Source of the DNA: Minisyncoccota bacterium
GTDB lineage: Bacteria > Patescibacteriota > Minisyncoccia > UBA6257 > 1-14-0-10-40-38
NCBI GenBank assembly: GCA_020052135.1
Contig: JAGVPS010000028.1
Location: forward strand, 1-34,055
DNA length: 34,055 nucleotides
Direction: 5' to 3'
This document shows, piece by piece, positions 7,443 to 33,442 of this stretch. The translations under genes and the position numbers were made by a program. The notes beneath the pieces are model-generated. The model ran no database searches and had not been told where the DNA came from. It worked only from the letters and a program-made list of their open reading frames with translations. How positions within the stretch are numbered: position 1 is the first letter of the stretch; each line of letters begins with the position of its first letter.

Positions 7443-8635
7443 CAAGACGCGCGGTACAATGCTTCGGTTTTCTGTATCATCAAGGAAAGGCTAAACTCTG
7501 TTTGCAAGCGATGCCGGGCTTCTTTTCCAAAGATTTGAGCTCTATAGTGATCTCGCATGAGTTCTTGAAAAGCCCGGGAAAGGCGTTCGGGGTTTTTTTG
7601 AGGAACTACCATGCCCGTTGCGTCGTGCATGACGACTTCAGGCATTCCGCCCGCGTCAGTAACGACTGCTGGGATTCCCGCGGCACAGGATTCAAGAAGC
7701 GCATAGGGCAGGCCTTCTTTTACAGAGGTGAGCGTAAAAAGGTCGAATGCTTTCAGAAATTTTGCATCATCTCCAGTAGGAGGTATCAGAAAAAACCTAT
7801 CTTGTAATTGCCCGCCTGCCGGCGAGGCAGGGTAATTGGTAATTAGTAATTGGAGTTTTGAGTATTCCGGTCCTGCGCCAATGATAAAGAAATACGCATT
7901 TGGAACGAGCGCCGCTGCTTGAATGAGAGTGGCGTAATCTTTTTCTTTGGTTAGTCGGCCGATGGAGCCGATCCAGGGTTTAGCAACTAGTAATTGCCCG
8001 CCTGCCGGCGAGGCAGGGTAATTAGTAATTGGTAATTTTGAAATAATTGCCTTTCGCGCGGAAACCTTATCCAGGAAAGTAAGGTTTTGATAATCAATCC
8101 CATTGTGGATGGTGGTTAACTTTTTAGAAGGCGCTATGGCATAGCGGAGCGCAAGTTTGTAGTCGTATTCTGATACGCAAATAATGTAGTTCTGAAAATA
8201 CGCAGCCATACGATGAAGGCGTATATAAACAAAACGGGCAACAGGAGAAAGTGCGTTTGATGGATTAAAAACCCAGCCATGGGCGGTGAAGATTACTTTT
8301 GCAGGTAAATGGTAAATGGTAAATGGTAAATGATTGTAAAGAAATGCGGCAAACGAGCCGATTACTCCTGCCTTAGAGCTGTTCAGGTGGATAATATCCG
8401 GGTGCTCTTTTCGATATACGCTCATGAGTGAAAAAAGCGCTCTCCAGTCATTTGCGAAGAGCGCGTACCAGGCGATTTTATTTGAAAGCGAGGGAATATC
8501 AACGCCTCCCCGTATGACGCGAATGTCAAAAGAGGCGCGGTCAAGATGTGAGGCGAGATCTGCTACATACTTTTGAGCGCCTCCTACGTCATCTTTGGTG
8601 ATGACATAGAGCACCTTTTTACGTTGCTCATCCAT
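7439..8635 (-). CDS. GT4-family (GT-B fold) glycosyltransferase carrying three in-frame repeat insertions
   Basis: N-terminal VLYVITKDDVGGAQKY and C-terminal EGLPYALLESCAAGIPAVVTDAGGMPEVV (E-x7-E region) are GT4 hallmarks. The stop overlaps the convergent 5805-7442 gene by 4 nt. Confidence 0.85.
   Translation of the reverse strand: MDEQRKKVLYVITKDDVGGAQKYVADLASHLDRASFDIRVIRGGVDIPSLSNKIAWYALFANDWRALFSLMSVYRKEHPDIIHLNSSKAGVIGSFAAFLYNHLPFTIYHLPAKVIFTAHGWVFNPSNALSPVARFVYIRLHRMAAYFQNYIICVSEYDYKLALRYAIAPSKKLTTIHNGIDYQNLTFLDKVSARKAIISKLPITNYPASPAGGQLLVAKPWIGSIGRLTKEKDYATLIQAAALVPNAYFFIIGAGPEYSKLQLLITNYPASPAGGQLQDRFFLIPPTGDDAKFLKAFDLFTLTSVKEGLPYALLESCAAGIPAVVTDAGGMPEVVMHDATGMVVPQKNPERLSRAFQELMRDHYRAQIFGKEARHRLQTEFSLSLMIQKTEALYRASC
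7804..7853 (-). repeat. Hairpin-plus-heptamer cassette, copy 1 (in frame, encodes ..LLITNYPASPAGGQLQ..)
   Basis: The plus strand reads GTAATTG-CCCGCCTGCCGGCGAGGCAGG-GTAATTG-GTAATTA-GTAATTG-G. It is an imperfect GC palindrome flanked by GTAATTN heptamers. Confidence 0.9.
7990..8037 (-). repeat. Hairpin-plus-heptamer cassette, copy 2 (in frame, encodes ..LPITNYPASPAGGQLL..)
   Basis: The plus strand reads GTAATTG-CCCGCCTGCCGGCGAGGCAGG-GTAATTA-GTAATTG-GTAATTT. It is a direct repeat of copy 1, exactly 186 nt away. Confidence 0.9.
8304..8331 (-). repeat. Perfect tandem heptamer (GGTAAAT)x4 inside the GT4 coding sequence
   Basis: Four uninterrupted units at 8304-8310, 8311-8317, 8318-8324 and 8325-8331. 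They encode HLPFTIYHLP on the minus strand. Confidence 0.95.
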
Positions 8636-8672
8636 ACATTTCTAGGATACCATTACTTACATCTAACCCTCT

Positions 8673-10955
8673 ATGGAACGAGAAAGTAATCCCATTGCAG
8701 TCTTTTCATTGGCATACCAGCCATTTGTGGGTGGCGCGGAAATAGCAATCCACGAAATCATACAGCGAATGCCGAAAGAGCAGTTCGTTTGTTTTACGCG
8801 TCGATTTGATGCGTCGTGGCCGAAAAGAGAAACCGAGGGAAATGAGACGATTGTGCGCCTTGGGCGTCCCGCGAGAGAGTATTATGGCCATGCGCTCTTA
8901 AAACTTTTCTATGTATTTCTTGCCTATCGTGCGGCGACGCGGATGCATCGGGAAGAGCCTTTTAAGGCAATCTGGGCGATCATGGCTTCGTATGGCGGCA
9001 TGGCAGCGCTTCTTTTTAAACTTCGGCATCCAAAGATCCCGCTCTTGCTTACGCTCCAAGAAGGTGATTCTGAAACGCATATCTTGAAGCGCGTGGGTAT
9101 TTTCTATCCGATATGGCGACTCATTTTTTTGCGCGCAGATCGCATACAAGTCATTAGCAGCTTCCTTAAAAGTTTCGCCGAGCGACAAGGAGCAATATGC
9201 CCGATAACCGTTATTCCAAACGGCGTTGATTTAAGTAAATTCAAACCAGAAATGGCGGTTGGAAGATTGCTTCATAAAATGTTTACCATTATTACAACAT
9301 CGAGACTTGTCCGGAAAAATGGAATCGATATTCTTGTGAAAGCGATAGTAGTGCTGAAGAAAGAGGGGAAAAAAGTAAGACTTCTTATTATAGGTGGTGG
9401 ACCCGAAGAAGAAGCACTCAAGATACTTGTAAAAGAGCTCGACGTTCAAAACGAAGTAGAGTTTATCGGACAAGTTGCGTCAGATGCAATTCCAGGATAT
9501 TTAAAAAAAACAGCTGACGTTGTGTTTGTTAGACCTTCTCGATCTGAGGGGCTGGGGAGTTCTTTTCTTGAAGCTATGGCAGCAGGAATTCCTATTATTG
9601 GTACTCCTGTTGGAGGTATCTCAGATTTTCTTTTTGATCGAGAAACTGGGCTTTTTGTTCGAGAAGAAGATCCAATTGATCTAGCAAAAAAGATTAGAGA
9701 GCTCATAGATGATTCCCAACTCTGGGATCGTCTTCGAAAAAAAGGTCTCAACCTTATCCAGCGGTATTCATGGGATCAAATCGCCGAAGAGATAGAAGGG
9801 ATATTTCTAGATCTCAAAGTGATCAAGCGCGTAGTTATTGCGACCGGCATCTTCCCCCCGGATATCGGCGGTTCGGCAAGCTATGCCGCAGTGCTCACCG
9901 AGAAATTGCCTGCCTATGGTTGCGCGCCTCTTGTGGTTACCTATGGAAAAGCGCGCCCATCGAAAATCATCTCCGTATCGCGCGGGCTTCCGAAGCCACT
10001 ACGGCATGGGCTCTTTTTTCTGAAAGTGTATATGAGCGCATTGCATGCGGATGTGGTGCTTTCTGCCGATGCTTCGTTTGGCGCAGGCTTTTTTGCGATG
10101 CTCGCCGCGCGTGCGGCGGGAGTACGCGCACTTGTTCGAGTCACGGGAGACTATGCCTGGGAGCAGGGATTGCAGAGATTCAATGTGCGCGATCTCATCG
10201 ATGGATTCCAAAAAAAGCGATATGGATTTTTTGTGGAAGCGTTGCGCTTCTTTCAAAAGGCAACGCTTCGCCTTGCGGATCAGGTGATCGTGCCAAGCGC
10301 ATATCTTGGTGCGCTCGCACGCGGGTGGGGCATCAGGGAGAAAAAAATACAGATTATCTATAATGCTGTCGAGCCGCCCCCTCCGCTTTCGTATGAAAAG
10401 GCGAGACACGCGCTTGGCATAACGGGAGATGTCATTGTTTCTGCTGGAAGACTGGTTCCGTGGAAGGGATTTGAGATGCTTATTCGCTCCCTTCCGGAAA
10501 TCAAAAAAGATTTTCCCCGGCTTACTGTTTTCATCGTTGGTGACGGACCCGAGTGCGCCCATTTAGAAAAGCTGTCGAAAAGCCTCGGAGTTAGCGGCAC
10601 AGTCCGCTTTCTTGGTATCCTGTCGAAGGATATGCTACAGGTTTATCTGCAAGCGGCAGATCTTTTTGTGTTGAATACTTCGTACGAGGGATTTTCCCAT
10701 CAATTGATAGAAGCCATGCTCGTGGGTATTCCCGTCCTCTCTACGGAAGTAGGGGGCAACAGGGAACTGGCTGAACTTGGGAAAAATATCACGCTCATAC
10801 CTTATAACGACGCGGAGGCATTCCAGAAAAATATAGTAGCCCTGCTTAACAGCAAGGCGGAAAAACCTCGGCATTATATAGATAGAAGCCTTGCTGACCG
10901 GGTTTCCGTGTCGAGAATGATACAGGAGCTTGTACGCCTCATGCGTCCTTTATGA
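8673..10955 (+). CDS. Fused double GT4 glycosyltransferase (two complete GT-B modules)
   Basis: There are two E-x7-E regions: SEGLGSSFLEAMAAGIPIIGTPVGGISDF and YEGFSHQLIEAMLVGIPVLSTEVGGNREL. The second module starts at KRVVIATGIFPPDIGGSASY (about nt 9824). Confidence 0.85.
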   Translation: MERESNPIAVFSLAYQPFVGGAEIAIHEIIQRMPKEQFVCFTRRFDASWPKRETEGNETIVRLGRPAREYYGHALLKLFYVFLAYRAATRMHREEPFKAIWAIMASYGGMAALLFKLRHPKIPLLLTLQEGDSETHILKRVGIFYPIWRLIFLRADRIQVISSFLKSFAERQGAICPITVIPNGVDLSKFKPEMAVGRLLHKMFTIITTSRLVRKNGIDILVKAIVVLKKEGKKVRLLIIGGGPEEEALKILVKELDVQNEVEFIGQVASDAIPGYLKKTADVVFVRPSRSEGLGSSFLEAMAAGIPIIGTPVGGISDFLFDRETGLFVREEDPIDLAKKIRELIDDSQLWDRLRKKGLNLIQRYSWDQIAEEIEGIFLDLKVIKRVVIATGIFPPDIGGSASYAAVLTEKLPAYGCAPLVVTYGKARPSKIISVSRGLPKPLRHGLFFLKVYMSALHADVVLSADASFGAGFFAMLAARAAGVRALVRVTGDYAWEQGLQRFNVRDLIDGFQKKRYGFFVEALRFFQKATLRLADQVIVPSAYLGALARGWGIREKKIQIIYNAVEPPPPLSYEKARHALGITGDVIVSAGRLVPWKGFEMLIRSLPEIKKDFPRLTVFIVGDGPECAHLEKLSKSLGVSGTVRFLGILSKDMLQVYLQAADLFVLNTSYEGFSHQLIEAMLVGIPVLSTEVGGNRELAELGKNITLIPYNDAEAFQKNIVALLNSKAEKPRHYIDRSLADRVSVSRMIQELVRLMRPL

Positions 10956-12061
10956 AAATCCTTATGATTTCAACCGATGCGCGCATATGCGATGCAGAGT
11001 CTTCAGTCGCTCGGCGCATGCAGGAATACGGCAATCTCTGCGATGAGTTACACATTGTTGTTTTTTGTAAAAAAAATGTGATATATCCTCGACCAGAACG
11101 AATTCGTATTGAAAAACAGACGTGGGTATATCCTACGTGGTCTCGTTACAAGTGGTGTTTTATATGGGATGGGTTAAAAACCGCCAAAACTATTTTGAAT
11201 AAAGAAGAAGCATGGGTCATTACCACTCAAGATCCGTTCGAATCAGGAGTCGTGGGATTCTTGCTTGTGCGGAACTTTCCCGAGGCTCGACTTCAAGTAC
11301 AAGCACACACTGATTTTTTAAGCCCCTTCTTTCGTGCAGAGTCTCTTAAAAATAGATTTCGTGGCACACTCGCCCGTTTTTCTATACGACGTGCCGATAG
11401 TATTCGGGTAGTGAGCGAACGAATTAAACAATCAATCATAATAAAGTACGGCGTGCCAAGCTCACAGATTGTGACGTTGCCTATTTTCGTAGACGTGAAA
11501 AAAATAAGAGAAGTGCCGCCCACACTCGACCTTCGAAAAAAATATGCGGGGAAAAGCCCCATCTTTCTCATAGCGTCGCGCCTTACCAAAGAAAAGAATA
11601 TTCCGCTTGCCCTTCGGGCGTTCCGGGAGGTGTGTTTAGCGAATCCAAACGCGTTACTCGTGATTGTGGGGGAGGGACCAGAGAAGTCAAAAATCCAATT
11701 ACTGATTACCCGCTACCAATTACAGAAGAATGTAATTCTTGAGCCATGGACGGACGATCTTTCATCCCACTATAAAACAGCAGATTGTTTTTTGCTCACC
11801 TCAAACTATGAGGGGTATGGCAGAACCATCGTTGAGGCGCTTGCCGCGGGCTGTCCGGTTATATCAAGCGACGTAGGTGTCGCGCGTGAGGCCATAACTC
11901 CTGAAAGCGGAAGCATATTCACGGTGGGGAATAGCCACGCGCTTGCACTGCTCCTTAAAGAGGTTATGCAAGGAAAGAAGTTTCAGCCAACCCTCCCCAA
12001 AAAATTTGATATATCAAAAGAGGAATACCTACAGCAGTGGCAACGCATGATGAGCAAATAG
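10952..12061 (+). CDS. GT4-family glycosyltransferase
   Basis: ATGA overlap with the upstream gene. LIASRLTKEKN, VGEGPE and YEGYGRTIVEALAAGCPVISSDVGVAREAI are GT4 C-terminal domain motifs. Confidence 0.85.
   Translation: MKILMISTDARICDAESSVARRMQEYGNLCDELHIVVFCKKNVIYPRPERIRIEKQTWVYPTWSRYKWCFIWDGLKTAKTILNKEEAWVITTQDPFESGVVGFLLVRNFPEARLQVQAHTDFLSPFFRAESLKNRFRGTLARFSIRRADSIRVVSERIKQSIIIKYGVPSSQIVTLPIFVDVKKIREVPPTLDLRKKYAGKSPIFLIASRLTKEKNIPLALRAFREVCLANPNALLVIVGEGPEKSKIQLLITRYQLQKNVILEPWTDDLSSHYKTADCFLLTSNYEGYGRTIVEALAAGCPVISSDVGVAREAITPESGSIFTVGNSHALALLLKEVMQGKKFQPTLPKKFDISKEEYLQQWQRMMSK
11696..11723 (+). repeat. Four-unit heptamer tract (CAATTAC TGATTAC CCGCTAC CAATTAC) at the position homologous to the cassette, without the GC hairpin
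   Basis: Period-7 xxxTTAC/xxxCTAC units read directly from the sequence. They encode QLLITRYQLQ. Confidence 0.7.
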
Positions 12062-12112: not shown

Positions 12113-12820
12113 ATGAAAACCTACAAGAAAATTTCGATCGTCATCCCGGCGTACAACGAAAAAAATACGATTGAGGAGATTATTCGCCGCGTAAAAGCCG
12201 CAGATGTGTTGGGTTTAGAAAAAGAGATTATCGTTGTAGACGATGGCTCAAAGGACGGCACGCGGGATATGCTAAAAGCCATTCCCGGCATCAGGTATAT
12301 TTTTCATGAAAAGAACAAGGGAAAAGGGGGGGCGGTAAAGACGGGCATTGCCTCTGCCACGGGCGACATCATCATCTTTCAAGATGCCGATCTTGAATAT
12401 GACCCAAATGATTATGCCGCGATGATTAGCCCTATTATCGAGGGTGGAACATTGGTCACAAACAGCGTGCGCATCAAGCCGGAGCGAGATGGTCGCCGTA
12501 GAAAATCCCTCTATTGGATAAGCTGGGCGGCGAACGGAGCCATCACGCTTCTCACGAACGTTTTATATTTTCATTGGAGCGGGGAATACGAGGGATGTTA
12601 TAAGGCATTTGACGCAGAAGTTTTAAAGAGTGTCGAGGTAAAAACAAACAATTTTGATTTTGATAACGAGCTCGTGTGCAAGCTCCTGAAGCGCGGTTAC
12701 AAGATCGTTGATGTTCCTATACGCTACTATCCACGGAACTATGAAGAAGGAAAGAAAATAAACTGGAAACACGGTTTTTTGATTTTGTGGACGATCGCGA
12801 AATACAGGTTTGTAAAATGA
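12113..12820 (+). CDS. GT2-family glycosyltransferase, small DPM1/Ppm1-like (polyprenyl-phosphate sugar synthase type)
   Basis: SIVIPAYNEKNTIEEII, VVDDGSKDGT and FQDADLEYDP (DxD) are present. At about 235 aa it lacks C-terminal TM helices. It is a paralog of 25783-26472. Confidence 0.85.
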   Translation: MKTYKKISIVIPAYNEKNTIEEIIRRVKAADVLGLEKEIIVVDDGSKDGTRDMLKAIPGIRYIFHEKNKGKGGAVKTGIASATGDIIIFQDADLEYDPNDYAAMISPIIEGGTLVTNSVRIKPERDGRRRKSLYWISWAANGAITLLTNVLYFHWSGEYEGCYKAFDAEVLKSVEVKTNNFDFDNELVCKLLKRGYKIVDVPIRYYPRNYEEGKKINWKHGFLILWTIAKYRFVK

Positions 12821-12880
12821 AACTCCCCGTGCTCACGCCCGTGGTATCTAAGTTTCACCCCGCCATCGGCGGGGTTTATT
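12818..12880 (+). terminator. Double-hairpin terminator module, copy L (begins with the TGA stop of the GT2 gene)
   Basis: Outer stem is TGAAACT (12818-12824) / AGTTTCA (12851-12857), enclosing an inner hairpin with a TCAC loop. Then comes CCCCGCC-ATC-GGCGGGG (12858-12874) followed by TTTATT. It matches the reverse complement of 17116-17175 at 52 of 60 positions. Confidence 0.75.
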
Positions 12881-12939
12881 AAATCCCTCACCGCTTTCAT
12901 ACCCGTGCTCACGCACAGGGTATTCAGCGGGGATTTAAT
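12878..12939. other. Long imperfect hairpin in the convergent intergenic region
   Basis: ATTAAATCCC..CCGC..ACCCGTGC-TCAC-GCACAGGGT..GCGG..GGATTTAAT. The inner stem-loop resembles the inner hairpin of the terminator module. It may terminate the minus-strand 12986-13681 gene. Confidence 0.4.
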
Positions 12940-12985
12940 AAAAAAATACCCCCAGAGCCTCGCGCGAGGTTGAAGGTGATTGCGG

Positions 12986-13681
12986 TCAGTAGTACACGAC
13001 CGCGTAAGCCGAAATCGCAGATACTCCCCACTGCCTGTGGTTGAATTCCGATTGGGGAGTTAGTACGTACTCTCCGGCATTGATGTGAAGAGGATCTCGT
13101 GACATTGAGAAAAACCTGAGAGAACCCTCAAACACCATCACGAGTTGATGTTGCCACTGGTCGAGACAGCGTGGACCGCCAAGCACAAGGCCTGGATTGG
13201 ATCCAGGAACGTGCTGAGCTGGATGGTGGGAGTGATACTCGTAACCCTCGCCCCAGCCGAAACTCCGAGGTTGTTGGGAGACGAAGCGGCAGATGGTAGT
13301 GCTCCATGCCTCCTCAGAGCTCGCTGGCAGAAACCAAGTGCGTGGTTCGTTTGCAGGAAGCTCAATCCCTGCTCCTTCCTCGAGGAGCGCGATGTCGTCA
13401 TCATGTTCGCACGCGAAAAGGCCGTGGAGCACTTGTACTGCCTCGAGTCGTCCTCCGTGGGCTGGGAGTGGCGGTTGCCATCCTGGGTAGCCATCCCGCT
13501 GTACGTACTTCTGAGAGCGCGCCTCACGACCCGCCTTCCAAAGCTTCACCATGAGACCGTGCGGATCGTCCTTTGCGACGAAGCGGGGATCATCGGGCGC
13601 AAACTGGTTGCCAATGAGCCACTCGCCGTCCGGATGTTCTACCGTGCCTTGCCAGAGGCCGGGTCCAATACTTCGGAACAA
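12986..13681 (-). CDS. Hypothetical protein, possibly bicupin-like
   Basis: TTG start 7 nt after GGAGG (13693-13689), with its own promoter. Two halves have cupin-like strand patterns (GEWLIGNQF...GLMVKLWKAG...LEAVQVLHGLF and HQLVMVFEGSLRF...INAGEYVLTP). The family assignment is weak. Confidence 0.6.
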   Translation of the reverse strand: MFRSIGPGLWQGTVEHPDGEWLIGNQFAPDDPRFVAKDDPHGLMVKLWKAGREARSQKYVQRDGYPGWQPPLPAHGGRLEAVQVLHGLFACEHDDDIALLEEGAGIELPANEPRTWFLPASSEEAWSTTICRFVSQQPRSFGWGEGYEYHSHHPAQHVPGSNPGLVLGGPRCLDQWQHQLVMVFEGSLRFFSMSRDPLHINAGEYVLTPQSEFNHRQWGVSAISAYAVVYY

Positions 13682-13721
13682 GAGTATTCCTCCGGTAAGG
13701 GGAAAGTGATCGCGAGATTAT

Positions 13722-13749
13722 ATAATATATCGTTTTGAAATCTTGTCAA
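13722..13749 (-). promoter_or_regulatory. Sigma70-type promoter for the 12986-13681 gene (TTGACA-16-TATTAT)
   Basis: The reverse complement of 13744-13749 is TTGACA. The reverse complement of 13722-13727 is TATTAT. The spacer is 16 nt. Confidence 0.6.
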
Positions 13750-13773
13750 CTAGCTAGCGGCAAATAGTTGACA
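13744..13773. promoter_or_regulatory. 9-bp inverted repeat TGTCAACTA / TAGTTGACA spanning both divergent -35 boxes (possible operator)
   Basis: The arms are 13744-13752 and 13765-13773. The 12-nt spacer contains the palindrome GCTAGC. Confidence 0.5.
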
Positions 13774-13796
13774 TATTTTTCTAGAAAATGTATTAT
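13768..13796 (+). promoter_or_regulatory. Sigma70-type promoter for the first DUF218 gene (TTGACA-17-TATTAT)
   Basis: TTGACA at 13768-13773, a 17-nt spacer, then TATTAT at 13791-13796. Confidence 0.6.
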
Positions 13797-13871
13797 AGCT
13801 TTCAGCTAGGTTACCCGAACGATCACTTTTTATAGGGAGGTAATAGCATTTCCACTGCTGAATCCGATCAA

Positions 13872-14486
13872 TTGGCCGAACTGCTCGTTCGCGTGTTGTG
13901 CGATGAACATCGGGAAGACTCGGAAGTGGTGTACGCAGTCACGGAAACGGGCGACAACGAGGACTCTATCTTTCGAACCGCTGCTCGAATCCACCGTACC
14001 CACCGTGTTCCGGTAGCCGTGAGCGATGCTACCACGGCGACGGGGTATCCGGGCTTCATCAAATGGGCCGGAAAGCTGCGCTCCCATTACCGGGTATCCG
14101 AGATCATCTGCATACGTCCGCCTGCCGGAGGAGCTCTGAACACCAACACGGAATTTCTGGAGTTCGTGTTGGTTGCGCGGGAAGAGGGGTGGCGCGCGGT
14201 GACAATTGTGGCTTCGCCGTTTCATCAACCCCGCTCATTCATCAATGCTGTAACAGCCGCAATCCGTATCTACCCCGATCTTTGCATCTACGGAGCTGTT
14301 GGGGTGGCACAGAACTGGCTCGAAGACGTGCGTTACTCTCAAGGCATTCACATGGGAGCACGCGCACGGCTTGTGCATGCGGAGATGGATCGCATCCGGA
14401 GATACACGACCCAGGGAGACCTTCTTCCCGCCTCTGAGATTCTCGACTACCTGAACGCCCGGGACGCACGCGTCCATTCATCATGA
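13872..14486 (+). CDS. DUF218/YdcF-like (SanA/ElyC family) protein, paralog 1
   Basis: ALNTNTEFLEF....AVTIVASPFHQPRSF matches the DUF218 pattern (NT.eN ... lVTs.fHm.RA). It is clearly paralogous to 16332-17012. The TTG at 13872 comes from the ORF track, but an ATT at 13848 sits 7 nt after GGGAGG and may be the real start. Confidence 0.75.
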   Translation: MAELLVRVLCDEHREDSEVVYAVTETGDNEDSIFRTAARIHRTHRVPVAVSDATTATGYPGFIKWAGKLRSHYRVSEIICIRPPAGGALNTNTEFLEFVLVAREEGWRAVTIVASPFHQPRSFINAVTAAIRIYPDLCIYGAVGVAQNWLEDVRYSQGIHMGARARLVHAEMDRIRRYTTQGDLLPASEILDYLNARDARVHSS

Positions 14487-14487
14487 C

Positions 14488-14527
14488 CCGCAGATAAGCA
14501 ATCGGTTTGCTGTCTGCGGTTTTTTTT
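14488..14527 (+). terminator. Rho-independent terminator
   Basis: CCGCAGA-ta-AGCAA-tcggt-TTGCT-g-TCTGCGG followed by T8 (14520-14527). Confidence 0.85.
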
Positions 14528-14545
14528 GCTAAAAATATAAAAAAA

Positions 14546-14580
14546 GAACCCTTGACGATATCGCCGTAGCGATTGGGTTC
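14546..14580 (-). terminator. Rho-independent terminator of the ClpP-like gene
   Basis: GAACCC (14546-14551) pairs with GGGTTC (14575-14580), with an inner ATCGC/GCGAT pairing. On the minus strand the hairpin is followed by TTTTTTTATATTTTT. Confidence 0.6.
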
Positions 14581-14598
14581 TAACGGGTAGAGTTATAC

Positions 14599-15165
14599 CT
14601 ACTCCTCCTCATCTGCTGGAAGGTACTCATCCTCGGGCACGATCTCGTGAATGATGCCGTAGTGGAGGGCTTCTCGGGCGGAAAGCGTTGCCTTGCTCCT
14701 CATGAAGTTCAAAAGGGTAGCAGTAGGGATTCCCGTCTGCTCCTTCATAAAGGAGAGAAACCAGCCTTGAGCGGCTCTCATGCGACGGAGCCACTCCTCG
14801 ATCACTTCTCGCTTTTCGGCCATGACTTCATCCTCGAAGTACCGCCTCACCATTTCGACGTCGCAGATGGTGACTGCGTGTCCGTTGATGAGTGTCCTAA
14901 CTTCATGAAAGAAGAAGGTTGCGCTTGGGAAGGCTCGTCGGCTACGACCCAAGAGGAAAAGGATGATCGCGGCCGAATAGACATCCCCGGCGAGCGTAAT
15001 GATTCCACGACGCTCGATACTGGGAGCCCGAGAGGAGAAGAAGTCGAATCTACCCCCTGGCGAACTCACATACACGCATTGAGGAGCATCGGGTCGCTGT
15101 AGCGAGAGCAAAAGGCCATCGACCGTCTCTTCGCTGATCTTTTCTTCAAAGCATAGGTATTTCAC
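14599..15165 (-). CDS. ClpP/peptidase-S14-like protein lacking the N-terminal axial region
   Basis: GTG start 6 nt after AGGAG. VYVSSPGG (compare INSPGG), GDVYSAA (compare GQAASMG, Ser retained), FFFHEV (compare MIHQP, His retained) and LSAREALHYGIIHEI (compare LSAPEAVEYGLVDSI). Confidence 0.7.
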   Translation of the reverse strand: MKYLCFEEKISEETVDGLLLSLQRPDAPQCVYVSSPGGRFDFFSSRAPSIERRGIITLAGDVYSAAIILFLLGRSRRAFPSATFFFHEVRTLINGHAVTICDVEMVRRYFEDEVMAEKREVIEEWLRRMRAAQGWFLSFMKEQTGIPTATLLNFMRSKATLSAREALHYGIIHEIVPEDEYLPADEEE

Positions 15166-15201
15166 TAAAAACTCCTGGGTTGGGTTGGAGTGCCGAAGCT
15201 A

Positions 15202-15230
15202 TTTATAATCTGATTTATAAAAATAGTCAA
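15202..15230 (-). promoter_or_regulatory. Sigma70-type promoter for the ClpP-like gene (TTGACT-17-TATAAA)
   Basis: The reverse complement of 15225-15230 is TTGACT. The reverse complement of 15202-15207 is TATAAA. The spacer is 17 nt. Confidence 0.55.
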
Positions 15231-15414
15231 GGATTTCTGGACAAAAAAGTGATGATATGACATTCTATATTCAGTTCAACGGCCCGACTCTCACCCCGAG
15301 AAAGATGCACACTTTTTTGTTCATGGTTTTCTCAAAAGTATGCGCCGAAATTTTCGGATTCAAAAGGGAATCTAGGTAAAAAGTTCCACCATAAACTCAC
15401 AGCCAGAAGGTTTT

Positions 15415-16230
15415 ATGAAAACAACCGTGTTTGATCCAGGGGCGAAAGATGGAAGGGTGAGTATGGCTATGAAGGGAGTGGCGTACGAGGCTGGGCGATT
15501 ACTCCGCTCGATGCAGAGCACTGGCCTCGATCGTGACATGAAGGGATCTCACGATTTTTCGACTGCGGCCGACCTTGCGTCTCAACGATTAATTCGAGAG
15601 AAACTCTCCAGTGTTTTTCCTGACGTGGCAATCGTGGCAGAAGAGGACGATGAACATGTGCTCAAACAGACGTGCTTCATCGTCGATCCGCTCGATGCGA
15701 CGTACAACTACAGCGTTGGAGGTTCTGATTGGGGCGTTGTTATCGGCCTCCTTACCTACGGGAATCCGGTGCGCGCGGTGCTCTACCAGCCGAACGCAGA
15801 CCTCATCGTCGAGGTAGCTCAAGGAGGGGGCGTTTTAATGAACGGAGTGCCGTGCGTGCCTCCGCTCGAACGTCCGCTCAAAGAGTCTATCATCGGCACT
15901 GAGATCGTGTGGTCTAACCCCGAGGGGTTTATCGACCACGTAATAAAGCCACTTCAGAAGCAATGTCTTGGTTTGGTGTGTCCGCTTTCGGCAAGCGCTG
16001 GAGTTGTGAAGTTGCTTCGGGGTGAGATTGCCGCCTACGTTAACCTTACGCATGGCAAGGTGTGGGACTTCGTGGTCCACGCGCTCGCCATGGAGGAATG
16101 GGGAGGCGTCGCTCTTGCTCCCAATGGCATGCCGCTTCAGTGGGATAGTCTCCCGATGCGCGGAGTGTTCTCGCCGCACCAGAAGCTTGCCGAGGCGCTC
16201 CTTACGCTCACCCGAAGGGTGGAACAGTAA
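15415..16230 (+). CDS. Inositol monophosphatase / CysQ / FBPase-family phosphatase
   Basis: IVAEEDDE (metal-binding EE), FIVDPLDATYNY (a DPxD[GA]T motif) and KVWDFVVHA (the WD motif region). ATG preceded by GAAGG. Confidence 0.85.
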   Translation: MKTTVFDPGAKDGRVSMAMKGVAYEAGRLLRSMQSTGLDRDMKGSHDFSTAADLASQRLIREKLSSVFPDVAIVAEEDDEHVLKQTCFIVDPLDATYNYSVGGSDWGVVIGLLTYGNPVRAVLYQPNADLIVEVAQGGGVLMNGVPCVPPLERPLKESIIGTEIVWSNPEGFIDHVIKPLQKQCLGLVCPLSASAGVVKLLRGEIAAYVNLTHGKVWDFVVHALAMEEWGGVALAPNGMPLQWDSLPMRGVFSPHQKLAEALLTLTRRVEQ

Positions 16231-16241
16231 CCATCCTTTAT

Positions 16242-16266
16242 CCCTCGCACGCGGGGGAATTTTTTT
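16242..16266 (+). terminator. Candidate rho-independent terminator
   Basis: CCCTC-gcacgc-GGGGG (one G-T pair), then AA and T7. The T-tract overlaps the next promoter. Confidence 0.45.
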
Positions 16267-16293
16267 GACAAAAAATCTGTCTACTTGTACCAT
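16265..16293 (+). promoter_or_regulatory. Candidate promoter for the second DUF218 gene (TTGACA-17-TACCAT)
   Basis: TTGACA at 16265-16270, a 17-nt spacer, then TACCAT at 16288-16293. Confidence 0.4.
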
Positions 16294-16331
16294 CTTTTGA
16301 GTACTACATCTCTAGGGAGATATGACAAGCA

Positions 16332-17012
16332 ATGACTGATACGTTCGAATCAACTCTTGGAGCATTCACGAGACGCGTCCTTTCGGACCTGCCTCCCGCT
16401 CGTCCGTTCGACTATCTCCTCCTCGTGGGGCAAACCGCTGACAACGAGCGGTCGGTCCTCAATCGCGCGGCTCGCTACTCACGCGACAATCGCGGCGGAC
16501 AGTGGATGAATCCGCATCTCCTCATCGTTGATGGGCCGACAGGCTTTGGCTTCCCTGGTTTTCCTCGGTGGGAGGCGAACCTGCGACAGCAGGGTGTTAA
16601 TCCGGAGAATATCGTGCGGGTCTCGTATTCGAATCCCGAACGGGGCATCAATACGAATACCGAGATGCAGGCGTTTCTCGACTACCTGTTGCGCGAGGTT
16701 GCTCCAGATGGCGCTATGCGGCTTGGCATCATTGCGGCGCCATTTCACCAGCCACGCGCGTTCGTGAATTTCGTGAGCGTGGCGCTCATGAGTGGCACAG
16801 ACTCTCGCATGATTGACGCCTTCAGCGTACCCGGTGATCCGTTGCCCATGGATGAAGTTGTCGCTCATTCGCAGGGCATAACCCGAGGCATGCGTGCAGA
16901 TCTTGTACGCACTGAAGCTGAACGGATTCGGGCGTACACGGCGAAGGGCGATTTGCTCCCCATTCCTGAAATCATCGCCTACATGGACGAGAGAGATGCT
17001 CGGAACCGGTAA
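16332..17012 (+). CDS. DUF218/YdcF-like protein, paralog 2
   Basis: GINTNTEMQAFLDY...LGIIAAPFHQPRAF. It shares the C-terminal RIRAYTAKGDLLPIPEIIAYMDERDAR block with paralog 1. Confidence 0.8.
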   Translation: MTDTFESTLGAFTRRVLSDLPPARPFDYLLLVGQTADNERSVLNRAARYSRDNRGGQWMNPHLLIVDGPTGFGFPGFPRWEANLRQQGVNPENIVRVSYSNPERGINTNTEMQAFLDYLLREVAPDGAMRLGIIAAPFHQPRAFVNFVSVALMSGTDSRMIDAFSVPGDPLPMDEVVAHSQGITRGMRADLVRTEAERIRAYTAKGDLLPIPEIIAYMDERDARNR

Positions 17013-17014
17013 CT

Positions 17015-17058
17015 CCGCGAGATCGGCATATGCGTATGCAGAGACTCGCGGTTTTTTT
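17015..17058 (+). terminator. Rho-independent terminator
   Basis: CCGCGAG (17015-17021) pairs with CTCGCGG (17045-17051), followed by T7. Confidence 0.7.
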
Positions 17059-17112
17059 ATATGCGCAATCTAGAGAATTCTCTGGCCGTTTCAGATTAGG
17101 GGTAAAGCGCAT

Positions 17113-17175
17113 ATAAAACCCCGCCGTTGGCGGGGTGAAGCTTAGATACCACGGCCGTGAGGCCGTAGAGCTTCA
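17113..17175 (-). terminator. Double-hairpin terminator module, copy R (begins with the TGA stop of the oxidoreductase gene)
   Basis: The minus strand reads TGAAGCT-ct-ACGGCC-TCAC-GGCCGT-ggtatcta-AGCTTCA-CCCCGCC-AAC-GGCGGGG-TTTTAT. It has the same architecture as 12818-12880. Confidence 0.75.
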
Positions 17176-18099
17176 TAAAGATTTTGAAATAGTTTCAAGA
17201 TGTGCAGTTACGGTAGCGCCAAACGCAACATCGGTGAGCGGAGAGAGACGATTCTCAATGCAGGCGCGAAAATGCTCCAACTCGTTTTTGAGCGGTTCCG
17301 TAGTAAACGAAGGAATGGCGATGGGTGTTGGAGAGGCAATCGTAAGCGTATTCGGGACAACTCCTGTATCGAGTATAATTTTTGTTGTGTCTCCCAGACA
17401 CACGAATTTCCTTACTTTTTCTGGACCGAGCCAGGAAGTGGTGATCGTGAGAAGCGGTCCGTGATCAAACGCAACGGTCGCCGAAACAAAGTCCTCGTGA
17501 GAACCATTTTGTATACGAAATTTTTTTCCTGAAACGCTTCTAATTTTCCCCGGATTAAACAGATAGTTAAAAACAGAAAGCGGATGCGGCGCCGCGTCCC
17601 AAAAACAATTGATGTCTGTGCGTGGAGGGCTTACCAAGTGTTCGCTCATGACATGGGTGATTGTGCCGAGGCGTCCCGCGTCAAGTTCAGTTTTTAAAAA
17701 TCGTATCGCATCATTATAGATGTATTGGTACCCAACCATGCATATTTTTCCCGATCGGGATGCTGTACGAGCAAGGAGTCGCGCTTCCTTCGTACTCATC
17801 ACCATTGGTTTTTCAACGAGCACATGTTTGCCCGCGCGGAGCGCGGCATGCGCAAGCGCAAAGTGGGTGTGCGCCGGGGTCGCGATAATAACCGCATCAA
17901 TGTCCGGAGACGCGAAAACTTCGCTAGGGTTTAGGGTATAGCGAATAGGAGAAGAGATAAGACTTTTCAGTTCTGGATGTTCACGAGTGGTTACGACTGA
18001 AAGGAGGGCGAACCCCTCGAGCGATTGCAAGAGTCGGAGATAGTTTTTTCCAAAGTTACCAACACCAAAAAGTGCGCACCTAAGCAGTGGTTGGCTCAT
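17173..18099 (-). CDS. Gfo/Idh/MocA-family NAD(P)-dependent oxidoreductase (likely sugar-nucleotide reductase/dehydrogenase)
   Basis: N-terminal FGVGNFGKNY Rossmann motif and the VLVEKPM (EKP) motif. Confidence 0.85.
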   Translation of the reverse strand: MSQPLLRCALFGVGNFGKNYLRLLQSLEGFALLSVVTTREHPELKSLISSPIRYTLNPSEVFASPDIDAVIIATPAHTHFALAHAALRAGKHVLVEKPMVMSTKEARLLARTASRSGKICMVGYQYIYNDAIRFLKTELDAGRLGTITHVMSEHLVSPPRTDINCFWDAAPHPLSVFNYLFNPGKIRSVSGKKFRIQNGSHEDFVSATVAFDHGPLLTITTSWLGPEKVRKFVCLGDTTKIILDTGVVPNTLTIASPTPIAIPSFTTEPLKNELEHFRACIENRLSPLTDVAFGATVTAHLETISKSL

Positions 18100-19168
18100 T
18101 ATGTGCGGGCTCAGTCTTAAGTATGGAGCGATACCACGTGAGCGTTCGCGTAAGGCCGGTTTTCAAATTCACCGATGGTTTAAAACCCAGCTCTTTTTGG
18201 ATTTTTGTAATGTCGGGGCAACGTCGCTGTGGTTCGCCTGCCGGATATGATGCCGGATAAGCAATCAGCTCTACGGTTGGTTTTTGGGTTACGAGAGAGC
18301 TCACGAGATTCCCTAAGCTCACCATATTAATTTCTTCATTGGGGCGCCCTACGTTATATATTTCCCCGTTTTTCTCTGACGCAAGCACTTTTAGAAATCC
18401 CTGGATAGCATCGGTAATGTAGCAAAATGTCCGTGTTTGATTCCCTTTGTCATGCACCGGCAAGGCCTCGCCCTTCAAGGCTTTGACCATAAAGGTTGGA
18501 ATTACTCGGTAGTCATGCACCTTCATACCGGGCCCGTAGACATTGAACGGCCGGACAATTTTAACCGGTATGCGGTAGAGCTGGTGATAGGTCATGCAGA
18601 GCGTTTCTCCGAGGCGTTTTGACTCGTCATAGCAGGCGCGCGGTCCCACCGCGGAAACATTGCCCCAGTATCCTTCGGGTGTCGGGATATAATTAGGGTT
18701 CGGGTCGCCGTAGACTTCGCTCGAACTGAAATAGAGCATGCTTTTTACCTTTTTGCTCTTTGCAAACTCTAAAAAGTTTTTAGTGCCGTTCACTGCAACC
18801 TCAATGGTTTCCAAGGGGAATTTCCGGTAATAAAAAGGAGAGGCGAGCCCGGCGGCGTGGATAAGGTAGTCGGCCTTCAATTTGTGCGGGAGCTGATTCC
18901 GCACATCATGGGTCATGAGCGTGAAGTGCGGATCAGTGTTGTCAATAATGCTATTTTCTTCAGCGCTCGTGATGTAGTTATCCATGACGATAACCTTGCA
19001 CGGCTTTTTCAAAACCTTTTTATTGAGCTCAAGAAACGTTGCAACAAAATAACTGCCCAAGAAGCCACAGCCGCCGGAAATGAGAATGGTTTTTCCTTCG
19101 AATGTTTTTGCTTCTGTTCGTATCGATCGGATAATGGATTGTATGTCTTCGTGGACGAGTTTGTTCAT
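18080..19168 (-). CDS. Extended SDR NAD-dependent epimerase/dehydratase, UDP-glucuronate decarboxylase (UXS)-like
   Basis: ILISGGCGFLGSYF and ACYDESKRLGETLCMTY (YxxxK in a UXS-like context). ATGA overlap with the upstream methyltransferase gene. Confidence 0.8.
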   Translation of the reverse strand: MNKLVHEDIQSIIRSIRTEAKTFEGKTILISGGCGFLGSYFVATFLELNKKVLKKPCKVIVMDNYITSAEENSIIDNTDPHFTLMTHDVRNQLPHKLKADYLIHAAGLASPFYYRKFPLETIEVAVNGTKNFLEFAKSKKVKSMLYFSSSEVYGDPNPNYIPTPEGYWGNVSAVGPRACYDESKRLGETLCMTYHQLYRIPVKIVRPFNVYGPGMKVHDYRVIPTFMVKALKGEALPVHDKGNQTRTFCYITDAIQGFLKVLASEKNGEIYNVGRPNEEINMVSLGNLVSSLVTQKPTVELIAYPASYPAGEPQRRCPDITKIQKELGFKPSVNLKTGLTRTLTWYRSILKTEPAHNEPTTA

Positions 19169-20439
19169 ACGAGTTTGGGTTCGGGTACGGGAATAATAAA
19201 CTTTCCGCCATTGGCTTTAAATGAGGAAAGTTTTTTCATAATAGGATCCGCAAAGTTCCATGCAAGGATTAGGATATAGTCAGGATTTTTCTCGGCAAGC
19301 TTTGCGGAGGAGAAAACCGGGATATGGGTACCCGGCATATATAAGCCCTGTTTCCAATGACTATCGTCAACAATATACTCAAGCGTTTCAGGACCGATGC
19401 CAAAATGGGTGAGCAGTGTTGTGCCTTTTGCGGGAGCTCCGTAGCCCGCGACGAACTTCTTCTTTTTTTTGAGATATCTTAGGAGTTCGGTAAGCGCTAC
19501 TTTGTTCTTTAGAATCTTATGCGAAAAGTTCTGATACGTCAAAGATTCATGGAGCTTATGTTCCATTTCTTCTTTTAGGAATTTTTGTATATGAGAGCGT
19601 TGTAGCGCGTGGGGACCATTACGAAGCTCAGCAAAAATTCGAAGCGATCCTCCATGCGTATCTGTTTTCTCTACATCAAATACCTCCATATCGAGCCGTT
19701 CAAAAAGCCGGATAGCCGTTCGTACGGAGAAGTAGGAAAGGTGTTCGTGATAAATAGTATCAAACAAATTTTTTGATATGAGATCTCCGAGGTAATATGC
19801 CTCAACCATAAAAACACCGTCTTTTTTAAGAAGGATGCGGACTCCTTCCACAATTTCATCAAGGTTGTCGATGTGGGGGAACGCGCTCGTCGCTGTTATG
19901 AGCGCCGCAGACCCGTGTTTTTCTAAAATCTTTTTAGCAAGTGCGGGGGTAAAGAATTCAGGAATTGTTTCCACGCCGTTTGCCGTTGCTTCGCGCGCGA
20001 TTTTCTCCGCGGGGTCGATGCCCAAGACGCGGAACCCTAATTTTTTAAATGGCTTAAGGAGTATGCCGTCGTTACTGCCAATATCCACGATAAGTGAATT
20101 TTCAATGAATGAAAACCGCCGGGAAATAGTCTTTGCCAACTCTTCAAAATGTGTGACAAATACTGGAGAAGTGGAGGATACATACACATAGTCCCTAAAT
20201 AAGAGTTCGGGTGACACAATGTCGCGGAGCTGCACAAAACTGCACTGCGTACAAAAATCGAGATCAAGAGGAAAAAAAGGCTCTGGTTGTAAGAGATCTG
20301 CTTTAGTAAGAAATGCGTTTGCGGGAGGAGTTGGCGCAAGCGAAAGTACAGGAATAAGGGCTTTTCCTTTGCACGCTCTGCACTCGAATCTTGGTTTAGA
20401 TAAATGGGACTCGGACAGTGTCTTCTTCATATGCTCCAT
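19165..20439 (-). CDS. NDP-hexose C-methyltransferase (TylCIII/NovU-type, zinc-ribbon + SAM MTase + C-terminal domain)
   Basis: FECRACKG...FCTQCSFVQL zinc ribbon, then LIVDIGSNDG SAM motif, then a long C-terminal domain. The start is uncertain: TTG 20466, ATG 20439 or ATG 20430. Confidence 0.75.
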   Translation of the reverse strand: MEHMKKTLSESHLSKPRFECRACKGKALIPVLSLAPTPPANAFLTKADLLQPEPFFPLDLDFCTQCSFVQLRDIVSPELLFRDYVYVSSTSPVFVTHFEELAKTISRRFSFIENSLIVDIGSNDGILLKPFKKLGFRVLGIDPAEKIAREATANGVETIPEFFTPALAKKILEKHGSAALITATSAFPHIDNLDEIVEGVRILLKKDGVFMVEAYYLGDLISKNLFDTIYHEHLSYFSVRTAIRLFERLDMEVFDVEKTDTHGGSLRIFAELRNGPHALQRSHIQKFLKEEMEHKLHESLTYQNFSHKILKNKVALTELLRYLKKKKKFVAGYGAPAKGTTLLTHFGIGPETLEYIVDDSHWKQGLYMPGTHIPVFSSAKLAEKNPDYILILAWNFADPIMKKLSSFKANGGKFIIPVPEPKLV

Positions 20440-20782
20440 CTTTACGGGATTTAGTGGCGAGCACAATCCACGTAGTGTCCTCTAAAAATTTCATGGCATG
20501 GACACGGAGCGGTGGCGAAAACACCATATCGCCGGTTTCAAGAACAGCGCTTTCTTTTTTACTGTTATCTTCGTCAATACCTTTTTCAAAATACTCCATT
20601 TTTCCAGCGACCATATAGCAATAATGCGAATCCTCCTTATGATAGTGGTTTGCGCGTACCGAACCTTTCTTTGAGGTGATAATAAGCACGCTCTTAATCA
20701 CGGTTATGCCATCATCAAAAAGCATGGTGATGTTGCCTCGTTCTTCAGCTACTTCCGGTTTGATGTTGCGGTATATTTTCAT
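20396..20782 (-). CDS. Cupin-fold sugar-nucleotide epimerase/isomerase-like protein
   Basis: GSVRANHYHKEDSHYCYMVAGKMEY...GDMVFSPPLRVHAM is a cupin pattern seen in WxcM/FdtA/CapF-C-like proteins. I chose the internal ATG (MKIYRN), but the ORF is open to 20818. Confidence 0.65.
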   Translation of the reverse strand: MKIYRNIKPEVAEERGNITMLFDDGITVIKSVLIITSKKGSVRANHYHKEDSHYCYMVAGKMEYFEKGIDEDNSKKESAVLETGDMVFSPPLRVHAMKFLEDTTWIVLATKSRKDGAYEEDTVRVPFI

Positions 20783-28178: not shown

Positions 28179-28186
28179 TGTCGCAT

Positions 28187-28195
28187 GCTATAATT
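28187..28195 (+). promoter_or_regulatory. Extended -10 promoter (TGCTATAAT), predicted leaderless transcript for the 28201 gene
   Basis: TGnTATAAT match. Only 5 nt (TTTTT) lie before the ATG at 28201, and there is no SD. Confidence 0.4.
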
Positions 28196-28200
28196 TTTTT

Positions 28201-32693: not shown

Positions 32694-32705
32694 ATTTTAC
32701 CTATT

Positions 32706-32751
32706 AGAAAATCACGTCAATTGAACGATCGTCCAATTGACGTGATTTTCT
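32706..32751. terminator. Perfect 18-bp-stem hairpin between convergent genes (bidirectional terminator candidate)
   Basis: AGAAAATCACGTCAATTG (32706-32723) pairs with CAATTGACGTGATTTTCT (32734-32751). The 10-nt loop AACGATCGTC is itself partly palindromic. Confidence 0.75.
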
Positions 32752-32759
32752 ATGTTTTC

Positions 32760-33437: not shown

Positions 33438-33442
33438 ATCGC

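Follow-up and report, generated by a model that had tools for sequence, protein, structure and literature searches.

The contig JAGVPS010000028.1 of a Minisyncoccota bacterium (assembly GCA_020052135.1), analysed here over its 34,055 nt (hereafter the window), consists mainly of a glycan locus, and a 4.2-kb segment inside it carries five genes, g1 to g5 (positions 12986–17012, Table 1), encoding a cupin-like protein (g1), two DUF218/YdcF-like proteins (g2 and g5), a ClpP-like protein (g3) and a phosphatase of the inositol monophosphatase (IMPase)/SuhB/CysQ superfamily (g4). On balance, this segment is probably the variable central cassette of a surface-glycan locus in a probable groundwater member of the Patescibacteria (candidate phyla radiation, CPR) rather than an autonomous island or a single system. 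The proteins g2 and g5, and probably also g1, would serve as accessory enzymes of the glycan locus, and g3 and g4 would be variable passengers, present here and missing from the related locus L055, with a putative link to glycans. The cassette would have been replaced by allelic or xenologous recombination among Patescibacteria, from a donor of higher G+C (GC) content and before the L055 lineage split off, and each of two elements of ~115 nt would have been inserted at a TA-rich junction of a stop codon and a convergent terminator, donating a new TGA.

The glycan locus encodes glycosyltransferases (GT) of families GT4 and GT2, PMT_2 transferases, NAD-dependent epimerases/dehydratases, a sugar C-methyltransferase, a nucleotidyltransferase and methyltransferases, and the left end of the contig (1–3441) is non-glycan. 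A first-pass annotation, made from the letters of the DNA, had read 12986–17012 as a self-contained five-gene island of outlying composition that interrupts the glycan locus; its five open reading frames (ORFs) were verified at the coordinates it gave, and their outlying composition is borne out. The GC content of the five genes is 0.54–0.58 against 0.435–0.543 in their neighbours, and GC content at third codon positions (GC3) is 0.59–0.635 against mostly 0.43–0.55, with two neighbours at 0.575 and 0.60. Tetranucleotide usage of the segment correlates with that of the rest of the contig at 0.66–0.70, compared with 0.88–0.92 for other parts of the glycan locus among themselves; the non-glycan left end is a separate and stronger outlier. 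The segment is thus distinct from its contig neighbours, a comparison made within the 34-kb contig rather than genome-wide.

The expression signals of the segment are also unlike those of its neighbours, as the annotation had noted, with ribosome-binding site, promoter and gap statistics in agreement. A Shine–Dalgarno (SD) core precedes four of the five cassette genes and 2 of 25 neighbours (Fisher p = 0.0026). The three perfect TTGACA −35 boxes in promoter-like sites of the window all lie in spacers of the cassette, correctly oriented, and both 11/12 promoter matches of the window likewise fall in its intergenic regions. Gaps between genes measure 101–249 nt within the cassette and mostly −74 to +51 nt elsewhere, where neighbouring genes abut or overlap. 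A replacement of the cassette fits with its SD-led monocistronic units, its raised GC content and the low identity between g2 and its L055 counterpart.

Gene neighbourhoods in related genomes

Loci with relatives of g2 and g5 were found by a genome scan using an alignment of five sequences. Several Patescibacteria loci (L009, L043, L032 and L015) have a DUF218-like gene as a regular part of a glycan locus, beside orthologs of genes that flank the segment here (C-methyltransferase, GFO/IDH/MocA oxidoreductase, GT2 and epimerase), which counts against the view that the segment interrupts such a locus. The envelope-related role that the first-pass annotation considered possible for these genes, or a role in glycan synthesis, is plausible. 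In L009 the order is cupin, GFO/IDH/MocA, GT2, C-methyltransferase, DUF218-like, YfhO-like membrane protein and a second DUF218-like gene; its GFO/IDH/MocA protein is 39% identical to that of the right flank of the segment (17173–18099) and its C-methyltransferase 43% identical (E 6e-110) to that encoded at 19165–20466. L043 has an epimerase, a membrane protein, a DUF218-like gene, GT2, a C-methyltransferase (42%), a dehydratase and a reductase; L032 has GT11, GT2, a DUF218-like gene, an epimerase and GFO/IDH/MocA; L015 has an RmlC-like protein, a GHMP kinase, a DUF218-like gene, epimerases and a nucleotidyltransferase. The families common to L009 and positions 12113–20466 of the window are GT2, a cupin-type protein, two DUF218-like proteins, GFO/IDH/MocA and the C-methyltransferase, so that only g3 and g4 are extras. 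Genomes of the L009 type have a GC content of ~0.59–0.61 across the same module.

In other CPR and DPANN loci, too, DUF218-like paralogs occur as pairs within ~3 kb, namely in L009 (6001–6618 and 9241–9837) and L046 (3865–4629 and 5953–6624), with a partial pair in L015 (4418–4741 and 6001–6609). A pair in Woesearchaeota (31% identical) has an M16 peptidase gene between its members, which parallels the peptidase-fold g3 between g2 and g5.

The five genes do not form a linked set. None of the 46 loci with a g2/g5 relative has a homolog of g1, g3 or g4 within 6 kb, and the ClpP-like gene, recovered in five independent contexts (seven contigs: L047/L048, L049/L050, L051, L053/L054 and L057), always stands alone among unrelated housekeeping genes. 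Since the homologs are not co-linked in these loci or in the single locus with a g1 homolog, the claim of a self-contained five-gene island is not supported. The annotation had named two outcomes that would speak against an island; the genes were indeed found scattered and unlinked in relatives, and the composition was found to be distinguishable, not indistinguishable, from that of the surroundings. PADLOC returned no match for any of the five proteins, in keeping with the earlier statement that no toxin–antitoxin or defence system can be assigned, and PHROGs returned only weak matches to ClpP-fold proteases. No recombinase domain (integrase or transposase) was found in the five proteins, no tRNA in a scan of the window, no direct repeats flanking the block and nothing relevant in an Rfam scan. 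The five genes do not amount to a novel system for defence, a toxin or a pathway.

The related locus L055 was recovered, together with L056, on contigs of 1.1 kb (ENA ERZ27293400 and JGI 3300004210). The g2-like gene of these contigs is 54% identical to g2 at the amino acid level and 68–71% at the nucleotide level. The last ~40 nt of the L055 gene and its terminator are instead 95% identical to the end of g5, and the 3' end of the oxidoreductase gene of the right flank (81% nucleotide, 61–63% amino acid identity) lies directly next to it in convergent orientation, the terminator abutting the oxidoreductase stop codon. That a g2-like gene meets the same oxidoreductase by way of a g5 terminator is a further point against an interruption. 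A stretch of ~2.53 kb of the window (Table 1) is without counterpart in L055, and its two ends fall where the 3' ends of g2 and g5 are homologous to each other. The difference fits either a loss in the L055 lineage, by recombination of the two paralogs, or an insertion in the lineage of the window.

The L055 locus also shares the compositional step, its DUF218 gene having a GC content of 0.544 (GC3 0.633) against 0.451 (0.438) for the oxidoreductase; the boundary therefore predates the split of the two lineages and does not reflect a recent insertion private to the window genome. The contig L058, from the same sample as the L055-type contig, is 89% identical in nucleotide sequence to positions 17561–18640 of the window. 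The g2 region is far more diverged (68–71%) than this flank, which suggests allelic or xenologous replacement of the cassette. Of the segment, L055 is without g3 and g4, yet it keeps a g2-like gene, the end of g5 and the GC step. The hybrid gene of L055 has an in-frame TAG (~286–291) that recurs in L056, an independent assembly; the gene is possibly a pseudogene, and the in-frame TAG fits decay.

Outside CPR the neighbours of the family differ, and the link to glycans is accordingly lineage-specific. In Planctomycetota loci (L001, L013, L016, L019, L021, L024 and others) the gene consistently lies by argF (ornithine transcarbamylase, OTCase), argD and argB, and agmatine deiminase is nearby in two loci from other phyla; this adjacency may hint at a different role or be lineage synteny only. 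Pfam counts among neighbours in loci that are neither CPR nor Planctomycetota revealed no recurring partner.

The proteins encoded in the cassette

The g2/g5 family is, as judged by sequence comparison, a divergent subfamily of the DUF218 superfamily, within which g2 and g5 are paralogs of 36–37% identity. The first-pass assignment to DUF218 stands at the level of the family, of which 23 of 48 members match the Pfam profile (PF02698) at E ≤ 0.01 (best 1e-9), and in the motifs; individually, g5 (16.9 bits, E 0.006) and g2 (12.6 bits, E 0.13) score below the gathering threshold of 27.6 bits. A k-mer protein search gave four matches for g5 and one for g1, and a profile search was needed to expose the g2/g5 family, which comprises at least 1000 clusters at 50% identity (272 below 1e-30) and has hosts in Planctomycetota, Bacteroidota, Nitrospirota, Gammaproteobacteria, Patescibacteria and one Woesearchaeota archaeon.

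In SanA, Thr, His and Glu residues have been reported as a putative catalytic triad (PMC12176290). Thr108, Glu111 and His139 of g5 correspond to this proposed DUF218 triad, an equivalence drawn from motif order without structural superposition; among the 48 sequences Glu111 is invariant and Thr108 and His139 are nearly so. The motifs read NTNTE and PFHQPR in both g2 and g5 (NTxxE and PFHQ in the family), and the family has invariant Glu/Arg/Gln/Glu/Tyr/Arg residues. An AlphaFold2 model of g5 (predicted local distance difference test, pLDDT, 93.8) has an alpha/beta fold on a multi-stranded beta-sheet, for which Foldseek retrieved neither YdcF nor any other PDB entry at E < 0.001, and a search of the family profile against PDB sequences gave chance matches only. 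No N-terminal hydrophobic anchor segment was seen in either sequence, and g2 and g5 are thus probably cytoplasmic. They resemble the DUF218 proteins YdcF, SanA and ElyC in their Thr/Glu/His motifs and association with envelope glycans; a membrane anchor at the N-terminus is not seen in g2, g5 or YdcF, whereas SanA and ElyC are anchored. They differ from DUF218 in their scores below the Pfam cut-off and in an additional conserved C-terminal module (HSQG...R...E..RI..Y..GDL).

From homology and neighbourhood, g2 and g5 would be enzymes of a nucleotide- or S-adenosylmethionine-binding fold with a Thr/His/Glu site, acting on a nucleotide-sugar or a lipid-linked intermediate, possibly as a paralog pair alongside a sugar C-methyltransferase pathway. 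A bolder idea, which we put forward tentatively and consider rather doubtful, is that the family forms an uncharacterised cytoplasmic class of glycan-tailoring enzymes, working in CPR and DPANN as paralog pairs with sugar C-methyltransferases, and that the cassette with g3 and g4 can be exchanged as a module, lending diversity to the cell surface of episymbiotic Patescibacteria. The size of the family, its invariant residues and the lack of a structural neighbour in the PDB for the confident g5 model are the grounds for it.

The unusual start codons proposed in the annotation are TTG for g1, GTG for g3 and probably ATT for g2, the last from SD spacing and from N-terminal homology with L055. 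The candidate ATT at 13848 follows a GGGAGG at a spacing of 7 nt, and the in-frame TAG at 13845 (site 13835–13850) excludes starts further upstream. The N-terminus of g2 aligns from residue 3 with the GTG-started homolog in L055, including residues before the first TTG; the gene-caller version of g2 (P0005) begins 15 residues later, at V16, and so cuts a conserved N-terminal helix. An ortholog of g5 from Hainich groundwater (P0002/L059) has 70% amino acid identity, and its 5' untranslated region and −10 box are conserved.

The g3 protein matches the Pfam family CLP_protease (E 1e-7), and its description as an N-terminally truncated ClpP-like protein proved accurate: its family begins ~28 residues later than true ClpP (alignment with the canonical ClpP encoded separately in a relative genome, L049 15505–16086), and alignments of PDB ClpP structures to g3 begin at chain residues 31–67. 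Ser63 and His86 of g3 fall at the positions of the catalytic Ser and His in solved ClpPs, which it resembles in this respect (peptidase S14). It is unlike them in that the position of the catalytic Asp is Lys in g3 (Glu or Asn in relatives), leaving the Ser-His-Asp triad incomplete, in that the family is without the N-terminal axial loops used for pore gating and docking of AAA+ partners, and in an insertion of ~20 residues in the handle region. Its 22 homologs are 44–59% identical, and the few that are named and all genome contexts found are from Patescibacteria.

The identification of g4 as an IMPase-family phosphatase is secure, with a match to Inositol_P (PF00459; E 4e-34, 118.8 bits against a cut-off of 27) over profile positions 10–269 of 271 and an EE metal site, DPLDAT and WD motifs that align with the Staphylococcus aureus IMPase 3t0j. 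Its score is under every NCBIfam equivalog cut-off.

The g1 protein is a near-orphan. The bicupin-like character ascribed to it is tentative, with a single stretch that matches Cupin_2 below threshold (residues 66–116, E 0.0036, 17.4 against 27.2 bits), as is the case in its homolog P0154 too. P0154 is the sole homolog (37% identity by BLASTP, 42% in a MAFFT alignment), and the conserved blocks common to the two show g1 to be a real gene. An AlphaFold2 model built from these two sequences is all-beta with an unusable pLDDT of 44. Searches for relatives of g1 among PDB sequences and among metagenome and viral contigs gave no match, and the g1 profile showed no relation to the cupin of L009. The P0154 locus (L052) has a fragment of an NTP_transferase (sugar nucleotidyltransferase) gene and an unrelated gene of 220 aa alongside; a divergent neighbour of P0154 in this locus looked DUF218-like by eye and was dismissed when neither hhalign nor Pfam gave support. 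The exact product of g1 is absent from the protein collection, and an ORF of 197 aa on the opposite strand (13145–13738, +) overlaps g1, which the source annotation may have missed or mis-called.

Origin of the cassette

An inverted repeat, not mentioned in the first-pass annotation, brackets the segment (12817–12877 and 17116–17176, 87% identical), with a 46-nt core (12832–12877) that is 93% identical and has only two copies within the window. The right arm falls in a stretch of ~116 nt that is not present in L055, so that the repeat is not the end-marker of a 4.3-kb mobile unit. The empty site in L055 reads CGCGG-T6-ATAAAG, and in the window this sequence is interrupted by 113 nt with an ATA triplet on either side. 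This right element supplies the TGA stop of the oxidoreductase (17173–17175), for which L055 uses TAA; its arm folds with a z-score of −4.4 and its internal hairpin (17055–17118) with −3.8. The left element supplies the TGA stop of the GT2 gene (12818–12820) and adjoins the A-run of the g1 terminator. Its first ~58 nt align with the right copy at 52 of 58 positions, this shared part containing a terminator hairpin and a further, small one whose loop reads TCAC (two-hairpin arm fold, z −2.75), and beyond the shared part it has a 70-nt long hairpin of different sequence (12875–12942, z −8.4/−9.0). Removal of the left element, together with a putative 3-bp AAT duplication, would restore a TAA stop. 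Further copies were found neither in 539 kb of retrieved loci nor, for the core of the repeat, in an exact scan of metagenome contigs (0 matches).

The repeat is best explained by a presumably mobile, hairpin-rich element of ~115 nt, resembling miniature inverted-repeat transposable elements (MITE) or repetitive extragenic palindromic (REP) sequences, that inserted twice, independently and in opposite orientations. Comparable classes are the Correia elements of Neisseria, RUP and ERIC. The likeness lies in the length of ~113–118 nt, the hairpins, the lack of an ORF, the position at 3' intergenic sites by terminators, the alteration of gene ends and, for the right copy, the empty site seen in L055 along with a duplication (ATA) of at most 3 bp; the elements are unlike MITEs in having no clear terminal inverted repeats, only ~58 nt in common and only two known copies. 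A composite non-autonomous transposon, with inverted repeats of 46–61 nt as termini and the five genes as cargo moved in trans, would explain why the sole two repeat copies in 34 kb, 87–93% identical, bracket the segment exactly. We regard it as highly improbable, given that L055 joins the 3' end and terminator of g5 to the oxidoreductase with only the ~116 nt that carry the right arm missing, which places the arm in a small separate insertion outside the g5 terminator, that neither a transposase nor a common target duplication around the 4.3 kb was found, and that the conserved ends point outward to the flanking stop codons. Two further candidates were rejected: an invertible segment of the phase-variation type, for which there is no recombinase and in which the five transcription units, each self-contained, would be unaffected by inversion, and a chimeric assembly at the repeat, whose longest exact shared run is 14 nt.

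Lying in the middle of a locus of GT, epimerase and methyltransferase genes and atypical in its GC, the cassette resembles the mosaics of O-antigen and capsule polysaccharide loci, also in that the flanks are 81–95% identical in nucleotide sequence between relatives and the cassette gene 68–71%, with a 2.5-kb indel in addition. It is unlike such mosaics in that its genes, which lie on both strands, are monocistronic and have promoters and terminators of their own, in its ClpP-like and IMPase-family proteins, which have no known glycan role, and in its host, a probable CPR bacterium. An alternative is a horizontally acquired, self-contained foreign block of five genes with promoters, SD sites and terminators of its own, unrelated to glycans and lodged between two convergent glycan genes. 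Its higher GC and GC3, a tetranucleotide correlation below that of any other part of the glycan region, its SD-led monocistronic units among SD-less or leaderless, overlapping neighbours and the adjacency of GT2 and GFO/IDH/MocA in L009, as the flanks would lie here minus the segment, all speak for such a block. We nevertheless consider it unlikely: the five families are unlinked elsewhere and DUF218-like genes are regular in CPR glycan loci, L055 has kept both the GC step and the join between g5 terminator and oxidoreductase, integrase, transposase and tRNA are lacking, and the bracketing repeat resolves into two small separate insertions.

The segment could conversely be native chromosome backbone between two separately acquired glycan modules of low GC, an explanation to which we attach little weight. 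Polysaccharide loci are often lower in GC than the rest of the genome, the ClpP-like gene is conserved in Patescibacteria, usually among housekeeping genes and with its own TTGACA promoter, and GC is likewise higher at the non-glycan left end; this end, however, correlates with the segment in tetranucleotide usage at only 0.41, in L009 and L043 the flanks belong to a single syntenic module with the DUF218-like genes, and L055 is without g3 and g4 at this place. A single new pathway for a sugar or cyclitol, made up of all five genes (a cupin isomerase, a phosphatase, two DUF218 enzymes and a ClpP-fold hydrolase), is similarly improbable. Enzymes of the IMPase family and cupins occur in sugar and cyclitol pathways, the five genes are co-located inside a glycan locus, and in L015 the DUF218-like gene lies close to genes for a GHMP sugar kinase and a nucleotidyltransferase; against this, no second locus has even two of g1, g3 and g4 beside a DUF218-like gene, and the genes form five separate transcription units on both strands, of which g3 and g4 are missing from L055.

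Several points weigh against a variable glycan cassette, which we prefer to these alternatives. The L055 alignment fits either direction of the 2.5-kb difference (deletion between the paralogs or insertion), and L055 is only 1.1 kb long, carries the in-frame TAG and may differ in source genome from L058. The association with glycan genes is backed by only four to five Patescibacteria genome loci and short metagenomic contigs, glycan genes are abundant in CPR genomes, where adjacency by chance is possible, and the neighbours are different beyond CPR (argF/argD/argB in Planctomycetota, varied genes in other groups). Foldseek gave the confident g5 model no neighbour in the PDB (nothing below E 0.007, with YdcF outside the top 50), and the enzymatic roles are predictions from sequence. 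Composition was judged from the 34-kb contig alone, and the atypical part could be the glycan flanks instead of the cassette. As to the small elements, the empty site of the left copy was reconstructed by analogy with the right one, and two copies are known.

The whole is ordinary mosaic evolution of a glycan locus with some uncharacterised enzyme families, not a new kind of system. New at the descriptive level are the CPR-specific tie of a large unstudied DUF218-like subfamily to loci for C-methyl sugars, a CPR family of ClpP-like proteins without the Asp residue or axial loops, and small palindromic elements that donate stop codons. Patescibacteria are host-attached, and their surface glycans, probably central to this lifestyle, are almost uncharted in synthesis and variation. 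Here, the centre of such a locus varies between close relatives, and tiny palindromic elements remodel gene ends and apparently coding sequences too.

Expression signals and palindromic insertions

Most units of the cassette have their own promoters, SD sites and terminators, as had been claimed (Table 1); the exceptions are g4, for which no convincing promoter or SD was found, and g1, whose terminator is weak. The SD spacing of 6–7 nt given in the annotation applies to g1 and g2 (7 nt) and g3 (6 nt) and not to g5, where the SD lies 12 nt from the ATG, or to g4. The promoter of g3 was read directly from the sequence, as the promoter scan omits it because its −10 box ends in A. The 249-nt spacer 5' of g4 (15166–15414) contains a near-palindrome, CCGAAATTTTCGG, with no Rfam match and no recognisable promoter, and this leader could harbour a regulatory element. 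Genes outside the cassette appear leaderless or SD-less, with TATAAT 7 nt 5' of the ATG at 2089 and 28201 (2064–2091 and 28176–28203).

Table 1 Coordinates of the cassette genes, their expression signals and the inserted elements in the window.
Feature	Position (strand)	Description
Mini-insertion, copy 1	7801–7851	in GT4 gene 7439–8635 (−)
Mini-insertion, copy 2	7987–8037	in GT4 gene 7439–8635 (−)
Left element	12816–12939 (+)	element proper ~12819–12936; AAT at 12816–12818 and 12937–12939
g1 terminator-like hairpin	12940–12977 (−)	hairpin + U7; weak fold, z −1.1
g1	12986–13681 (−)	near-orphan cupin-like protein, 231 aa; TTG start, GGAGG 7 nt upstream
g1 promoter	13722–13749 (−)	divergent pair with g2 promoter; TTGACA-16/17-TATTAT, 11/12 match
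g2 promoter	13768–13796 (+)	divergent pair with g1 promoter; TTGACA-16/17-TATTAT, 11/12 match
g2	13848–14486 (+)	putative cytoplasmic DUF218/YdcF-like protein, paralog a; listed ORF 13872–14486
Stretch without L055 counterpart	~14441–16973	~2.53 kb; g2 tail + terminator, g3, g4, most of g5; from blastn and three-way alignment
g2 intrinsic terminator	14488–14527 (+)	fold z −4.06
g3 intrinsic terminator	14538–14581 (−)	fold z −2.85
g3	14599–15165 (−)	ClpP-like protein, Patescibacteria-type, 188 aa; GTG start, AGGAG 6 nt upstream
g3 promoter	15202–15230 (−)	TTGACT-17-TATAAA
g4	15415–16230 (+)	IMPase/SuhB/CysQ-superfamily phosphatase, 271 aa
g4 terminator	16241–16258 + T-run (+)	hairpin + U-run
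g5 promoter	16265–16293 (+)	TTGACA-17-TACCAT; region overlaps g4 terminator
g5	16332–17012 (+)	putative cytoplasmic DUF218/YdcF-like protein, paralog b, 226 aa; ATG start
g5 intrinsic terminator	17015–17058 (+)	hairpin + U-run fold
Right element	17059–17177 (−)	element proper 17062–17174 (113 nt); ATA at 17059–17061 and 17175–17177
Mini-insertion, copy 3	27763–27810	in GT4 gene 27045–28178

A smaller palindromic insertion of ~27–28 nt (CAATTAC[CCTGCCTCGCCGGCAGGCGGGCAATTAC]) is present in three copies, 94–96% identical, within GT4 genes. Each keeps the reading frame open and encodes ...ITNYPASPAGGQL..., and the GT4 paralog at 10952–12061 is uninterrupted at this point (...ITRYQLQKNV..., 11690–11717). 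These mini-insertions look like selfish palindromes within coding genes, or like local gene conversion; the Rickettsia palindromic elements are comparable selfish palindromes in protein-coding genes. Elsewhere in the window, two divergent GT4 genes are separated by only 37 nt (8636–8672), and the spacer between the convergent genes 31285–32595 and 32760–33461 holds a near-perfect palindrome of 48 nt (32705–32752), formed by two abutting 24-nt arms that are 96% complementary.

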